DNA of 64,000 bases from positions 146,196,001 to 146,260,000 of the forward strand of contig OX597816.1 of the NCBI GenBank assembly GCA_951406725.2, in the 5' to 3' direction. The stretch's first letter is position 1; each line of letters starts with the position of its first letter. Shown here in pieces: positions 5,953 to 64,000 of this stretch. This stretch comes from Octopus vulgaris (lineage: Eukaryota). A model generated the notes under the pieces. The model did not search any database and had not been told where the DNA came from. It saw only the letters and a program-made list of their open reading frames with translations. The position numbers and the translations under genes were made by a program.

Positions 5953-6335
5953 GGAAGCACTCCGTCGGTTACGACGACGAGGGTTCCGGGTGATCCGAAT
6001 CAACGGAACAGCCTGCTCGTGAAATTAACGTGTAAGTGGCTGAGCACTCCACAGACACGTGTACCCTCAACGTAGTTCTCGGGGATATTCAGCGTGACAC
6101 AGAGAGTGACAAGGCCGGCCCTTTGAAATACAGGTACAACAGAAAAAGGAAGTAAGAGTGAGAGAAAGTTGTGGTGAAAGAGTACAGCAGGGATCACCAC
6201 CATCCCCTGCCGGAGCCTCGTGGAGCTTTAGGTGTTTTCGCTCAATAAACACTCATAACGCCCGGTCTGGGAATCGAAACCGCGATCCTATGACCGCGAG
6301 TCCGCTGCCCTAACCACAAGGCCATTGCGCCTCCA
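5953..6335 (-). mobile_element. Full-length SINE family A inserted in the PLE ORF
   Basis: Reverse complement of 1605-1988; TSD cattacc(t/c)ggttt at 5940-5952 and 6336-6348. Confidence 0.92.
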
Positions 6336-9300
6336 CATTACCCGGTTTATACTGCCACATGCGATGCAAATAAAGACCGACTTATCTAACCTAATATTTA
6401 ACATTGTAAATAAACGCTTTGATAAGAATAATAGTTTTTCGAAACTTATTAATAGTAGAGTAATAAAGGTAGGTTATAGTCTAACGCATAACTTAGTCAG
6501 CATCATTCCCTCCATAAATAATTTTAAAAAACTAGATATTTTCTATTTAAATAGAAGCAACATTAACAACGAGATCAGTAATAGTAAGAAGAAAAGCAAT
6601 AAACCCCATAACCACCCCAATATTAGTAAAGGTTACACTTGGAACCATAATAACCCTATTAATTTTAATAGAGCTAGCAATATCTCACCAGAAAGTAATT
6701 CCTCTGCCATAACACAATCTATGTGGACTGTATGAATTAAGATAATTGTGTCATTGGAAATACCTGTAAAAGTAAAGATGTACTTTACCAGTGCACTCTC
6801 ACAACACAGTTTAGTAACAGGGTATACATAGGAACATCAAAATGAAATGAATCGAAGACGAGTCGCTAACCAACACTATTTCAGAAATAGAAATAGGATT
6901 AAGGTGACCGGATTAAGTAAATATATTTGGGAACTTAAAGATGAAGATAAAAGATTCGCTCTAGAATTGAAAATCCTCGCCTCCACACCTTCGTACAGTG
7001 TAAAAAATAAGAAATGTCATCTTTGTATCAATGAAATATGTTTCATACTAGTGGCACAACATCCCTTATTTAACTTGAGGGAAGAGGGGAAACCAGCCTG
7101 CTTGCACAAAGGAAGTTTTACCATCGCTAAATATAAATAGCATTGGACACCCTTGCACCATCCCCAAAGATAGCACCCAGAGCCCTTCACCACAGAAATA
7201 GTAGTTCTTAATATTAAATGAAGGCATATATAAACTCCTAAGTTAAAGCTAGTTTAACAGTATTACACATTTGTGTCCCTTATTGGTGTTCCAATAGTAA
7301 TATCCTTATCCCTTCTCCAATATAGCCGAGTTTGACTCCCCCACTCATTAAAACTAATTACACAATATATATATTTATTTAGCCATTTCTCCTTAATATA
7401 ACCTACTCACCCCCTTTAACACATGCAATTTCTTTCAATCATGAACCTAATTTGGAATAGAGAGGGCATCAGTACTTAACCCCCAATGATTAACCCACCA
7501 CTCCAGAAAGCCTGTTCCGGCCATCTCAGATAACACTGTACTGGCAACAATTTTTACTTATCTGAACCTTGTATAAAATGGGTGCGCTTGTTTTCAATAG
7601 CGTCAATCTGGACTTCAATTTCAGACCTCCCTCCACTTATAGTGCACCCAATTAGACCTACCCAATTAGGAACAACAAAAACCAACATAGAACATAACTT
7701 AATTTGAACAACTATATATTAACTGCAAGCCTCTCTAGATCGTATAGGTCTGTATTTGACACTGCACTAAACGTCTTGCCATAAGCATATTGCGCATGAA
7801 TGGACCTGAAACTTTGTGGTAGACCCCATATGGCTGCGTCCACGCAAGAGTTTTATATAACGACAAGTTTAGTAACAGGAACAATCTAATATTAATTATA
7901 ACATAATATATACTATGTAAGATTTAACTTGTAATCGTTTAACTCTTTTAGAGATTCGTAATGTGGCCCTCTCGTATGTCTAATAGGCAGAATGCACTCA
8001 GGAACGTGTAGACATTTACTTGTTCGTCTATTATTACCACCACTTAAGAATATGCTGGCTATTTAAGATGTTAGATTTAACATTATATTTCGATGGTAAT
8101 TCCACTAGTAACCACCTCCCTTACAGTAGTCTCCCCTTAACTGTCAGAAAGTTATTGCCATATGGTTGTTAGTACTTATTTAATCTTATTTTTAAATTTT
8201 GTTATTCTATTTTCTCTTGAGTTTGTGTAGAACGGCATAATCGGCCTCGTTCCACTTATGGCATAGTCTTCTCCCCCCAACTTTTATTTACTCGTTTATT
8301 TACTTCTTTATTTGCATCTAGCCCTGTAACGGTCTTAGCTTACCCTTGGTTTTAACCGACTATTTGTAGAGATGGCTCGACTTTGGTCAATTCCTTTACG
8401 GACAACAAGCGGTTTACCTCTGTAATATATCAATAAGTACCCTATTATATAATCTTTACGGGTACGTTTTTGGATAAATATTAAATAGCTCTATTTACGA
8501 AATCACAAGTACTCTCCTTTTTCTAGACTTATTGGCGATTCCTGTTTTACTTCAGCACTAGTTTTATTTTACTATTATTTATACACCGTGATACCCCTGT
8601 AAAAAGAGATGGCTCACCAATTATTTTTCTAGATTATTTGTTAGTTTGCTCTTTTCCCCATCGACTTGAAACTTCACACTGCAAAATGGTATGATTCTAA
8701 TTTATTGAGCCTTCATTCCTCATCTCAAGCCCCTGCTGTTTCATCTTCACTCTTCCCTATTTTTATAAACTCTTGTTTATTTTGTACCCTATGAGCAAAG
8801 TGTGCCTGCATACTGATGCCTAGGGTTAATATAAGTAAGTGCTACAGGTAGTAAGAACGGATATTCTTATCTGTTAGACGGTTATTCCAACCGCTAACTC
8901 TGCTTACATATGTGTGTGTGTGTGTGTGTATGTGTATTACTATATGTGTATATATATATTACTATGTGTGTACCTATGTGGAAGGGTCGCAAATGTGAAT
9001 ATAAGTATGTGTGTTTGTGGGAGGCTCCAATCAGTTTGTGAATACATTTTATTCTTTTGGGGTGTAAAAAAACTAAAAATCTACCGACAGCTGTAACCCA
9101 ATTGTCTCCGGCTAAGTTCTCTCACACGTTGACACATGCATTTATACACTGCCTGAGACATATGACCAATATTCATAAAGACAATATAAAAGCTTAGAGA
9201 CAAAGGATCTCTCGCTAATAAGAATTGTATACCTTTAATTACTTCGCAAATGGCGAGGCAATGTTCTGACAAACCAAATGAAAGCTTGACTGACGAAACC

Positions 9301-16444: not shown

Positions 16445-17590
16445 CAAAACCATCATAATCGGACCTTGAAACAACCAATGATTGGATGCTAAAACCTGTT
16501 GAAAAATATGAAAGACCGAAAAAAAAATCACTCTATTCTGAAAGAGAACAAAACATTCGCTAAAGATCTCTTAGATATCCACGACATTGATCAGGTTGAA
16601 GGCAATGTGCCAAATGCTGCTGCAAAGAAAATAATATTAATAGCAAAGAAAAAAGCATATGAAAAATTAGCTAGAAGATGGGAGCAGAAACCTCTGCATG
16701 GCAAGCATGTGGCCCGTAGCAAATAAGGTGATGTCGATTAGAAACACACGCATCAATGGATACGAAGCTCACGGCAAAAGGCAGAGAGTGAGGGTTCCAT
16801 ATTAGCTGCTCAAGACCAAAGCTTATTAACCCGGACCTACCAAACCAATGTGACAAAAAGATGGAGCTGACCCAAAATGACGATTCTGTAACGATAGATT
16901 GAAACTATAGACCACCTAATCTCAGGATGTAGAGTCTTAGCACCTGTAGAATATAAAGCAAGGCATGACAGAGTCGGCCAGTATTTACACTGGACAATAT
17001 GTCGGCATTATAAAATCAAAACGGTTGACAAATGGTATAAACACCATCCTGAAGCTGTGACTGAGGGACAAAATGTGTCGATTCATTGGGACTTCCCCGT
17101 ACATACCGACAAAACTATAAAAGCTAATATACCGGATATTATTATAAAAGATCAGACAAAAAAGGTGTGTTTATTAATTGACATTAGTATTCCTTGCGAT
17201 CACAACATAGCGGCGAAAGAATTGGACAAAATCAATAAATATAAAGACTTGCTAATCGAAATTGAAAAAATGTGGCATCTCAAGGCGACTACAGTACCAG
17301 TGATTGTAGGATCTCTAGGAATGATAAAACAAAGGTACTGAAACCTTCCCTACAGGAAGTGCACAAAATCGTGCTAACTGGAACGACTCATGTACAGCAT
17401 TATCGCCGTGAAAACAACATTCATTCATGAATTTATTTATTCATTAATTTTTTAAATACATATTGTATTTGTGTGTGTAATCTGGGAATGCACACAATGT
17501 GCTTCTCTGCCCTAGGTGGACGGAAATCACTCGGCGAGAAATGGTAGAAAATTTGAAGAAAGAAAGAAAAAAATAATAATGATAATAATA
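16445..17590 (+). mobile_element. 5'-truncated R4/Dong-clade non-LTR retrotransposon (CCHC knuckle plus restriction-like endonuclease)
   Basis: WEQKPLHGK; LAAQDQSLLTR; ETIDHLISGC..LAPVEYKARHDRVGQYLHW; WDFPVHTDKTIKANIPDIII..LLIDISIP..KELDKINKYKDL..VPVIVGSLG. The 3' end runs into a (TAA)n-like tract at about 17570. Confidence 0.9.
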
Positions 17591-29160: not shown

Positions 29161-29600
29161 TTGGGTCATCCCATAAATAATGTGGGTTTTTTTTCAATTA
29201 ACAAAGGAGCATACTCGGCATATTTTGCTTTATGAGTTCAATAAAGACATCAACGCAACAGAAAGTGCGAGGAACATTAATGCAGTATATGGGGATCGGA
29301 CAATAAGCGTAAGCAAGTCTCGGCTGTTGTTCCAGAAATTCAGAATCAGAAACTACAGCCTAGAAGACGAGCCTCGTCCTGGAAGATCAGAAGAGCTCGA
29401 TGAGGACGTCCTGCAAACCATGGTGGAACCAGATCGTATCAAAACTGTCGTTCAAGTCAGCGGTAGAAGAAAAACGACTATCTTTGCTTTCAGGACGAAT
29501 TGTGTTCTTCCATCAGGATAAAGCTCGGTCACATAAAGCGAAGAGCACATACCAAAGGCTGGAGCAGCTTGGATGGAAACGATTCCCCCATCACCACAAT
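29161..29600 (+). mobile_element. Internally deleted mariner (SETMAR/Mos1-like) element
   Basis: TA followed by TIR ttgggtcatcccataaataa; HTH RHILLYEFNK..ESARNINAVYGDRTIS..FQKFR..LEDEPRPGR joined to VFFHQDKARSHKAK..LEQLGW. Confidence 0.88.
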
Positions 29601-29915
29601 ACTTTCAAAACGCTACAAACTTCCAATATTTCACTTTTAGCTGTCTGGAAAGCAGGGAAGTTTCTTCTGATATACTGTCGTTTATCTGTAATTTCTAACA
29701 TGTCGGATTTTCTGGCGATGGCCTGGTACTATTAGGTTTTCTATTTCAGTACAATTCTAGGCATGTGTGAAACATCAGATGAAAGTAAAACATTGGGAGG
29801 TCTTAGCTCTTTTAAAGCTGGTAGGTAATGAGTCGGTGAGGTAGAGGATGGGGTATTGAGTGTTTTGTGAAAAAAAATTAAACACACTTTACATAGTTTT
29901 AATATAATGTTTAAT

Positions 29916-39079: not shown

Positions 39080-39097
39080 ATAATTTCGAAATACAAA

Positions 39098-39400
39098 GGA
39101 ATATCCCAAGAATACGGCAAAGGCGTGGCTGAGATCTGTTGTGGCTTACCATGAGGCTAATACCTATATTTATGTTGGCTGCTCTGTAAATCTAAAGCAA
39201 CACTTATGCAATCACTATTCATCATTTGAATTAAGACATTGGGCAGGCAGTACATCTCTAGCTACAAAGATTTGGGAACTTACAGACGACAATGTTAAAA
39301 TTTTATACCGTTTGCAAACAGTAGATACTGGTGCAGATTTTGCTGCATGGAGCTGTTTGAAACATGAAAGAGATCAAATAGTGAAAATCTAATTAATAAT
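39098..39400 (+). mobile_element. Nematis-type PLE GIY-YIG fragment
   Basis: YIYVGCSVNLKQHLCNHYSSF..STSLATKIWELTD, homologous to 6800-7140. Confidence 0.7.
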
Positions 39401-41209: not shown

Positions 41210-41293
41210 AATACCTTCTTGGCTATAACCTTGGAGCCATAGTAGTCCGTTACAGTACCCAGTCGTTTAGATAAGAAGTGAAGTAGACTCCCG

Positions 41294-41331
<38 letters not shown>

Positions 41332-41415
41332 CGGGAGTCTACTTCACTTCTTATCTAAACGACTGGGTACTGTAACGGATTACTATGACTCCAAGGTTAT
41401 AGCCAAGAAGGTATT
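41210..41415. repeat. Near-perfect approximately 205-bp palindrome centred on (TA)n
   Basis: aataccttcttggctataacc...gactcccgtat-(TA)n-atacgggagtc...ggttatagccaagaaggtatt with 2 mismatches. Confidence 0.97.
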
Positions 41416-42090
41416 GGCTATAAGATTCAAGATCAAAGTTAGATTCAAGATCAAATCTAACTTTACTTGTGCCTCTGAAAACATAATTTATGTCATAAAA
41501 TGCTCGGGCTGCCACCAAGACTACGTGGGATCCACGGGACTATCACTCAGACGTAGATGCACACTGCATCGACAACAGATTGCATTCCCAGAATACAGAA
41601 TGATACCTTTTAGTGAGCACATTGAGAAATGCACAAAGCAACTACTACCACAATTTTTAATCTTTCCATTTTACCAATGTGCTATCGGATCATCAACACA
41701 AATTAGACTAAACAAGGAAACATTCTTCATTGAAAAGTACAAGCCCAAACTTAACCATGCCAACATACTGATACAGAGAAATTCACACTAAGGGAAAGGA
41801 AAACAATTTTAAGCGATTATCTCCCTTACACCGGAAGAAATCACTCATTACCTCCCTTTATTTAGAACTCTTTTAAACATAAACATAACGTCGTAAGAAA
41901 TTTGAAAAGCTAAACGCGAAACCGGTCTTTCTTCTAAATTATGTCATTGGAAGAGAAAAAAAATGTAATATTCTTCAGACATATTGACGCAAATATATAT
42001 ATATTTTAACCTTTAATCCTTGTGTAGTTTTTTCACTTTTTACTATTTTCTATATATTCAAACCACGTGCTTTCACAAACCAACTTTCTT
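41414..42090 (+). mobile_element. 5'-truncated Neptune-type PLE: open GIY-YIG domain, HHR and 3' end at (TA)n
   Basis: ORF 41414-41791 SNFTCASENIIYVIKCSGCHQDYVGSTG..RCTLHRQQI..FSEHIEKC..IFPFY..RLNKETFFIEKYKPKLN. Confidence 0.92.
41895..41933 (+). ncRNA. Minimal hammerhead, U3-A8 core variant
   Basis: AAGAAA-t-TTGAAAA-GC(taaac)GC-GAAA-CCGG-TC-TTTCTT; 6-bp helix I, palindromic helix III ACCGGT, GUC site. Confidence 0.75.
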
Positions 42091-61265: not shown

Positions 61266-61639
61266 AATTATTAACTGTCTGAATAATTTTATCGGTTACT
61301 TCAAAAGGGGAGTGGTTTATCGGGTCAAAGATAATTAGTTTCAGAGACTTCGATAGATGTGACGGATGGTAATGTCGATTATGCAAATATAAATCGTTTA
61401 AATAATACTAGCAGACGATAAACTTTTAAACAAAAGAAAAGCAGTCCTAATTAGTTGCAATCTAAAATTCTTCAAAACTTCCCCATTTACAAAGTTCAAA
61501 GTGAGCTTATAAATAAGGTATTGAAACGTTACTCACTCAGTTGATATTTAGTTTACATTTGGCATTTGATCATCATTTTCGAATTAATGTGACCTATTTA
61601 ACTAGTTTCTTTATACATCTTATTCTTCATACTATTCAC

Positions 61640-62157
61640 GCTAGGCCAGTGGTAATGGAAATTTCAAATAATTCTGATCACCCTTTGATATTATTAATTA
61701 TCGATAAATTTTTGGAAAGTTTTCGAATTGAAAAGCCAGTATTTTATTTACTGCCAAGGAGCTGCGCTTGCGCGGTAGATTTGAAAAAATTAGAATGTAT
61801 AAGCACCAGGTATATAGTAGATTGTCTCGTGATATTTAATCTAAGGTGTACCTGCTGAAGAACACTTCGCCTAGCAAATTATTTTATTTGCTAAAAAACG
61901 TCTGAAACCATTGGTCCAGGAGTTAGATGGTAAATGTTTTTATTTTTCATTCCCTTCGAAATTTTATTCCTAATAGTGGTTTGTAATTTTACTGTCCTCT
62001 CTTGCGTGCAAGGAATCCTATGATGGATACCTCTTGTGTGTTTAAATATACACTGTATTTGAATCAATAACATATAGTCTATTGACTAAATGTTTACAAG
62101 CTAGGCCACTGATAATGGAAATTTCAAATATTTCTGATTACCCTTTGATATTATTAA

Positions 62158-62158
<1 letters not shown>
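61640..62158 (+). mobile_element. HHR-bearing 460-bp unit with 59-bp terminal direct repeat, ending at (TA)n
   Basis: 61640-61698 is repeated at 62100-62158. HHR at 61851-61920: CCTG-CTGAAGA..tagcaaat/atttgcta..GAAA-CCAtTGG-TC-CAGG. Confidence 0.82.
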
Positions 62159-62194
<36 letters not shown>

Positions 62195-63121: not shown

Positions 63122-63398
63122 ATTTTACGAGCATTCGCAATTTATAAAATTCTAATAATGTTTGTAATTTTTTTTCTTTATAGCTTTTCGCATCCACCAT
63201 CTTAGCCTACGACTGGAATTTGTAAATATATGTGTAAATTACATCTCTTTAGTTGGTATTTTCCTGAGAAGCCACAAGCGGATCTCACTCAGTGTAGCAA
63301 AATACTAACTCCATCAAAATCAAAATAGTGTGGACATGCGCGCGTGTACATATATATATATATATATATAGGAAAAAAGCAACAAGAATGGATTAAAA

Positions 63399-63486
63399 TC
63401 TCGGTACGATCGTTTCGTACGAGTACATCTTTAATAAGCTACAAAAAATGCAGTGAATACAGATGGCTCGTACTCGTCAGCCGAAA
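63399..63486 (-). ncRNA. Intact type I hammerhead ribozyme with extended helix II
   Basis: TTTCGG-CTGACGA-GTACGAG-(43-nt insert with CATCT/AGATG)-CTCGTAC-GAAA-CGATCG-TA-CCGAGA. All core bases canonical; GUA site; about 30 nt from (TA)n. Confidence 0.88.
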
Positions 63487-64000
63487 AAATATCAGAGAAT
63501 TCCCAAACATCAAAAGGGGTAGATACAAAAGAGGTTGTAAGATTAACTGCATTGAAGAAAGTTCGATTCATGGAGATCCGATGAAAGGTTTTAAACCTAT
63601 AGAATTTATGCATGTCTACAATCTATTACTATTAATAGATTGTCAGGTTACAAAGAGGTCATTAGAAAGGAAAGAAAAATGGGGTTGTTTTTAAATGAAA
63701 TTAAACTATTATATTATTATTATACTAAACTATAATACACTACACTATATTATATTATATTATTTTGATATATTATATCACATCACAATACACTACGATA
63801 GGTCTGGTATTAGCAGAATTAATTTTTAAAAGTTTAAAAGAAATTAAGAGAATTAACTAACTAATATTTGTAATGGGATAAAAAATAGACTAAGAAATGG
63901 AGATAAAAATAGAGCAAAATTTAATTTATTAATAATATGGTCCAATAGAAATAAATCAAATAATTTAACTCAATAAGTATGAAATAGTACCATCAGAGAG

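Follow-up and report, generated by a model that had tools for sequence, protein, structure and literature searches.

A short insertion in the Octopus vulgaris genome belongs to a dispersed family of hammerhead-bearing copies which combine the insertion anatomy of Penelope-like elements (PLEs), i.e., their partial-tandem, inverted-copy and tail pattern, with a non-coding unit. We consider it probable, at roughly 80%, that PLE enzymes mobilise the family as a non-autonomous element, copying an RNA which runs uninterrupted through the ribozyme cut site and may be a ligated circle. The insertion lies in the window, by which we mean the whole stretch of 64,000 nucleotides that was analysed. Its parts are listed below; unit positions are numbered from u1 = 61640, so that the cut site falls at u277/278.

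61637 to 62161, plus strand: the whole insertion, a single 5'-truncated arm of 1.14 units with its 3' end at site A, delimited by alignment to the family majority unit
61640 to 62099, plus strand: one repeat unit, u1-u460, non-coding; the family majority is 470 nt with 33% GC
61640 to 61698, plus strand: upstream copy of a 59-bp redundancy, its left edge being the 5' truncation point
62100 to 62158, plus strand: downstream copy of the 59-bp redundancy
62158 to 62161, plus strand: site A, u59-62, the fixed 3' end at which this copy finishes, lying 245 nt past the cut site
62058 to 62064, plus strand: site B, about u421, the family's other fixed 3' end, lying 144 nt past the cut site and read through here
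62061 to 62161, plus strand: the 'tail' of about 100 nt between sites B and A
62160 to 62190, no strand: (TA)15 or (TA)15.5 microsatellite, the putative target

The two copies of the redundancy are identical at 55/59 positions and start 460 nt apart, and the match extends outwards to 61637 and 62161. An earlier note on this DNA, made from its letters, had described about 1.13 units with a 59-bp direct repeat and a 3' end on (TA)n, and both descriptions agree with what we found. One change relative to the family majority is common to both copies of the redundancy, and the left flank of the insertion has no relation to the unit. The insertion aligns to the family majority unit at 91%; measured against the majority of its subfamily it is 93% identical and is therefore old. 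The spacing of 460 reflects this copy after small deletions, the family unit being 463-470 nt, and 509 in an older subfamily. The retrozyme-like family of approximately 460 nt proposed in the note is thus upheld as a non-coding, hammerhead-bearing family whose unit measures about 460-510 nt, and its figure of 460 is corrected. The lack of an open reading frame also stands: in two circularised majority units the longest ATG frames are 47 and 41 aa, a 113-aa stop-to-stop frame at 61517-61858 has no Pfam match, and the RT plus GIY-YIG open frame of an autonomous PLE is absent from the unit.

The family was searched for in an assembly of 2.8 Gb in 227 contigs. A first look gave 3209 candidates, and exact matches numbered 1573 for a 23-nt site-B motif, 110 for a site-A motif and 137 for a motif at u146-166, with 0 for the controls; crude scaling gives a rough estimate of ~5,000 segments. 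We retrieved 355 family loci, about 295 of them distinct, and recognised at least four subfamilies with units of 463-509 nt that are about 74-91% alike. The majorities of three subfamilies measure 470, 465 and 463 nt and are in agreement at 394-420 aligned positions; in the fourth the unit is 509 nt long and about 74% alike, with layout and A-B spacing unchanged. One group of loci, L395-L398 (G000:C10:95.32-95.55 Mb), is a segmentally duplicated, internally deleted derivative with a 426-bp spacing. Pieces of the family also occur in contigs of six sequencing runs guessed to be RNA; their profile resembles that of a large run of unrecorded kind and says nothing on cleavage, circles or expression.

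Each unit of the family carries a type I hammerhead, which in the window copy reads as follows.

61839 to 61928, plus strand: type I hammerhead with a bulged stem I, a long stem II containing two mismatches and a short stem III
61839 to 61844 and 61851 to 61854, pairing with 61917 to 61920 and 61923 to 61928, plus strand: stem I, read from the sequence
61855 to 61861 (CTGAAGA) and 61904 to 61907 (GAAA), plus strand: the core, read from the sequence
61914 to 61916, plus strand: GUC triplet, preceded by a 3-bp stem III, with the predicted cut after 61916

We take the cut in this copy to lie after 61916, a position placed by the hammerhead consensus. A motif scan of the 64 kb returned this hammerhead and one other, with 0 matches in 20 shuffles; Rfam gave no hammerhead match in either the window or the region. 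The single ribozyme, the core and the GUC were all present as the earlier note had claimed, and one correction concerns stem II: it forms six perfect pairs in the family majority and is mismatched at 61863 and 61899 in the window copy. In folding calculations, forcing the ribozyme fold costs the window copy 10.9 kcal/mol, compared with 3.5 for the family majority, and the best predicted fold of the window copy traps the core. Because of the two stem II changes and this difference in cost, the ribozyme of the window copy is probably decayed and crippled.

At the level of the family the picture is one of maintenance. Across four subfamilies, 6/7 stem I/II pairs change on both sides, 98.7% of cells are paired, and the core is invariant. 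This covariation level was reached by 0/500 shuffles, a result that is not to be read as a probability, given that the rows are 15 hand-picked, related copies and the events are few. Within the window's own subfamily there was no covariation and the structure was 97% paired, and all 11 core positions are intact in 20/31 subfamily-1 arms. As such, the alignment shows that the hammerhead fold was retained as the sequence diverged between subfamilies, and suggests, from few events, a family ribozyme under selection with its stems held by compensatory change. Stem III of the family is short and palindromic or nearly so, a trait of PLE ribozymes that, according to PMC6765202, probably work as dimers. 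Separately, the stem I bulge (61845-61848) could pair with a CGCC (61868-61871) that is conserved in all four subfamilies, as a possible pseudoknot between loops I and II; 80.6% of the copies' cells at this candidate pairing are paired and the changes are one-sided only.

The ends of the copies were read in a sample chosen by short motifs and not by length, comprising 246 arms at 133 loci (51 loci by the site-A motif, of whose 110 matches 100 were listed, and 82 by the site-B motif, of whose 1573 matches the first 100 were taken, all on one contig, with 7 duplicates dropped). The 3' ends fall at two places: 101 at site A (u50-72), 98 at site B, a class drawn at u412-445 because alignments continue into the TA repeat, and 47 elsewhere. 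A microsatellite follows 89/101 A ends and 81/98 B ends, i.e., 170/199 of the fixed ends, as against 7/47 other ends. Target-site duplications are unreadable because the arm ends fall in microsatellites. The 5' ends are scattered, the arms being 5'-truncated, and together with the fixed 3' ends this means that the copies are not freely permuted. Varied permutation points, which the earlier note had proposed to look for, are therefore not what the family offers, with 199/246 arms finishing at the two fixed sites.

Arm lengths were followed in a dedicated sample of 94 arms, from which three segmental copies were dropped and 25 arms with other ends were excluded from the rates. The decay is near-constant: 0.65% per nt up to one turn, 0.78% immediately beyond it and 0.68% well beyond it. 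Since the 3' end is fixed while at the 5' end the arm is truncated in the usual way, and arms do not stop at one unit, the 59-bp redundancy of the window copy marks a mere truncation point and loses its standing as the signature of a circular template.

These ends bear on two readings that dispense with PLE enzymes. The first is spread at the DNA level, by a non-autonomous Helitron-like element or a dispersed satellite. Tandem partial copies and neighbouring microsatellites occur in such elements too, and a few of our loci are segmental duplicates (L133-135, L395-398). However, the 3' ends are fixed and, in the sense of the ribozyme, 5' truncation is exponential; this indicates an RNA intermediate, as do the head-to-head A+B pairs described below and the covarying ribozyme, and we rate DNA-level spread as highly improbable. 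The second is a SINE mobilised by an ordinary LINE and ending in a simple-repeat tail, which would share the fixed 3' end, the 5' truncation and the AT-rich end. Yet six loci had no tRNA-like head inside the element (one tRNA lay outside the arms), and the two internal ends, the arms of more than one unit and the paired inverted arms present here are, to our knowledge, not features of SINEs; we give this reading scarcely any credence.

The commonest form of the copies is a head-to-head inverted pair. Where both outer ends of a pair were A or B, there was one of each in 56/63 pairs of the first sample, in 11/11 at separate loci and in 26/28 of a third sample, 14 of whose 94 loci overlap the first. 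The B arm extends further 5' than the A arm in 40/56 pairs, and the tail is present on A arms and absent from B arms. On both counts a simple fold-back on one cDNA was rejected as the maker of most pairs. Paired arms have 251 variants in common, compared with 74 expected between loci, and tandem overlaps have 86 compared with 27; this excess implies one source per event. From the counts of A and B, the two DNA ends of an event would each use a different site.

In PMC8557442 and PMC3846280 the pattern of PLEs is an inverted truncated copy and a tail confined to one end, and the look-alike that the earlier note had itself mentioned, the PLE pLTR-plus-tail structure, matches in its fixed ends, partial tandems, inverted truncated copies and one-sided tail. 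According to PMC11167929, the Anolis PLE protein cuts AT-rich DNA and extends both strands there, and uses two start sites inside the RNA, downstream of the hammerhead and with the tail between them. By analogy, sites A and B may be start sites of this kind.

The same anatomy could be explained if a longer coding PLE existed of which the copies were simply 5'-truncated ends, made up of pLTR and tail, most PLE copies being heavily truncated. PLE coding remnants lie near 12/260 loci, and one of them, at L165, abuts an arm. However, the 12 remnants have no common position or orientation, the sequence 5' of the arms wraps into the unit again, up to 2.5 units, and not into coding sequence, abutting sequence is common to only 2 pairs among 86 free 5' flanks, and the closed unit recurs in four subfamilies. 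The earlier note had named collinearity of all copies with a longer coding PLE as the case against its own reading, and no collinear coding PLE was found in the 260 loci. For the sampled loci the coding-end explanation is largely refuted, and overall we judge it very unlikely. At L165:927-1251 the PLE RT remnant meets a family arm that starts at u282, beside the cut site; this junction is either a chance insertion or a template switch.

Young coding PLEs are present in the genome, with frames of 850-955 aa, and RVT_1 scored above cut-off in L278. Compared with 53 loci of two PLE groups, the unit gave no significant DNA match save one family member that was adjacent by chance, and it gave none to a young neighbouring PLE at 63372-64000. 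No autonomous partner was found by way of two GIY-YIG remnants in the window, the older subfamily or the neighbouring hammerhead element. The neighbour at 63372-64000, on the minus strand with a hammerhead at 63389-63502, is the 3' end of an unrelated young coding PLE whose copies are 99% alike (992 candidates). Its GIY-YIG-like frame lies just past the window and its inverted partner about 1.9 kb beyond the window end; its 3' ends form two groups about 16 nt apart, and it terminates at (TA)n at 63350-63370. Elsewhere in the window, 41225-41791 holds a near-perfect inverted repeat of ~70 nt around (TA)16 which runs into a GIY-YIG frame. It belongs to a young and very abundant PLE family (16986 candidates, with an 850-aa frame and RVT_1 in L278), in the 3' end of which a motif scan found no hammerhead. 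Further PLE endonuclease-like remnants lie at 621-932, 6259-7140 and 39084-39392; the type at 6832-7140 has 12086 candidates and relatives with asparagine-rich frames up to 955 aa. Two other frames, 16898-17341 and 29177-29735, we take to resemble remnants of a LINE C-terminus and of a mariner transposase.

If the family is moved by PLE enzymes, the nature of the RNA that they copy is the next consideration. Reads past the cut site were made by 73/92 arms, and 98/99 junctions there have one of two normal lengths. Among long arms, 30/69 exceed one unit and 1/69 reaches two; the longest arm is 1196 nt, L179 has 2.5 units with decayed cores and L014 has 1.93 units. Read-through, normal junctions and arms of more than one unit together require that the template was continuous at the cut site, which leaves a ligated circle or an uncut tandem transcript. 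End-to-end jumping on cut monomers is improbable; no scars of it were seen at the cut site with a pattern that would miss large ones.

Scarless read-through and arms of up to 2.5 units in the apparent lack of a long array favour a circle, for which we put the chances at about even. The matches listed for the three motifs (100/110, 100/1573 and 100/137) contain no run of more than two on the same strand. A stop after one turn was considered as a mark of a circle and rejected: the first sample had suggested it, with all 8 B arms and 8/10 A arms that passed 460 nt ended by 591, and it is absent in the dedicated 94-arm sample. An excess of arms whose 5' end falls at the cut site is left as a hint. 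Such ends numbered 19/92 compared with 8.2 expected, for an interval chosen after seeing the list, and the replicate excess was not significant (3/16 compared with 1.4, p 0.16). The second cut site has 4/16 5' ends, and the stem II hairpin has a peak of the same strength (18/69) that is absent in the replicate (0/13).

The competing template is an uncut linear tandem transcript of a master array, copied by the same PLE enzymes with the ribozyme having a minor part in insertion. This concerns the circle step only, and we hold it to be a real contender at somewhat under even odds. Scarless read-through and a constant stop rate fit it equally well, and the homogeneous units within one event would fit a homogenised array. 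Furthermore, in the account of PMC11167929, uncut RNA was the main substrate of the Anolis PLE in vitro, the one PLE so studied. A further point against our main reading is the finding of bioRxiv 10.64898/2026.07.22.740005 that 8/9 Xenopus retrozyme dimers did not cleave. An uncut tandem, however, presupposes sources that exceed even the longest product (2.5 units), and with 1/69 long arms at two units and a stop rate of ~0.7% per nt such sources would hardly be regenerated, yet four subfamilies have persisted. Nor was there an array among the matches listed, or any fixed, position-specific difference between upstream and downstream tandem copies at 253 sites, and the ribozyme stems are maintained by compensatory change.

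For PLE-driven mobilisation we infer the enzyme, the priming, the cleavage and the circle as follows. Rare copies with two ribozymes would be transcribed, self-cleaved and ligated into a monomer circle. At a (TA)n tract a PLE protein supplied from elsewhere would cleave both strands, and from each of the two DNA ends reverse transcription would start within the RNA, at site A for one end and at site B for the other. Each cDNA would stop at random (about 0.7% per nt) and might pass the cut site or exceed one unit, after which the two cDNAs would be fused head to head, or a single arm would be attached to the flank. The window copy would be a lone A-started arm that ran 1.14 units. In its boldest form this describes ribozyme RNA circles of 460-510 nt which, as a long-lived lineage, parasitise Penelope enzymes, with the cut (TA)n strands priming at two fixed sites on the same circle. 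We offer that form tentatively, as a possibility against which we would still wager. Were it true, a single rule of two-site priming would account for the inverted copy of PLEs, for their tail on one side and for the way in which tandems are regenerated, and the circles would provide a minimal substrate, free of protein-coding sequence, on which to study how PLEs integrate.

The family bears on how animal retrozymes insert and on how PLEs rebuild their tandem and inverted structure. Non-LTR retrozymes, those of a mussel included, have been proposed as non-autonomous PLE derivatives, and in PMC7229834 and bioRxiv 10.64898/2026.07.22.740005 the tie rests on co-occurrence and pLTR similarity. What this family adds is a countable PLE insertion signature in a non-coding ribozyme element, with two putative start sites, one each per inverted pair, and the small unit is a directly testable substrate. 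A literature search, with Repbase, Dfam and preprint supplements outside its scope, found no published description of such a family. A term search of the main text of a recent octopus repeat annotation (PMC13282606) did not find 'ribozyme', and the family may already be catalogued under another label.

The octopus family has much in common with the animal non-LTR retrozymes as portrayed by Cervera and de la Pena 2020 (PMC7229834) and Li, Clavereau and Pollet 2026: a non-coding unit, one type I hammerhead, a GC content under 45% (here 0.33), thousands of copies and co-occurrence with PLEs. Its unit is within the 51-972 bp range of bioRxiv 10.64898/2026.07.22.740005 and above the 150-450 bp first given. 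However, those retrozymes are described as arrays, whereas nearly all octopus copies are dispersed truncated arms under two units. Tandems with two or more ribozyme units are rare, the window copy having one ribozyme. The texts of PMC7229834 and bioRxiv 10.64898/2026.07.22.740005 available to us mention neither a pair of fixed ends nor inverted arms in pairs. Retrozyme cleavage and circles are, for the octopus family, predictions.

With EN+ PLEs, as PMC8557442, PMC3846280 and PMC11167929 depict them, the family shares 5' truncation, partial tandems, an inverted 5'-truncated copy, a one-sided tail, targets that are AT-rich or (TA)n and a hammerhead upstream of two internal start sites. It differs in its tail (about 100 nt compared with 30-40 nt), in having no RT or GIY-YIG frame and no sequence match to the PLEs examined, and in a stem II that is long, and branched in one subfamily, where EN+ PLE ribozymes have the minimal form. 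Chlamys PLEs such as MRC1 (PMC8557442) are likewise non-autonomous, pLTR-forming and found as multicopy head-to-tail insertions; in these green algal elements the 3' end resembles that of the autonomous family, and most Chlamys are without canonical hammerheads. Plant LTR retrozymes, in the descriptions of PMC6765202 and PMC4918200, are also non-coding and hammerhead-bearing, with a circular RNA intermediate proposed, but have type III ribozymes in LTRs, a PBS, a PPT and 4-bp target duplications. The octopus family has no LTR body, and its type I topology, single-unit wrap-around and truncated ends rule out identity with them.

Other hammerheads were met in the course of this work. At L167:46-117 and 388-459 a different, short hammerhead is repeated at a 342-bp spacing; it probably represents another retrozyme family, of the classical tandem type. 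Several type I hammerhead motifs that are unrelated, mostly with a long stem II, lie in the flanks of L126, L156, L178, L254 and L258, and others flank L266, L267, L271, L275 and L279, so that the genome seems rich in hammerhead families.
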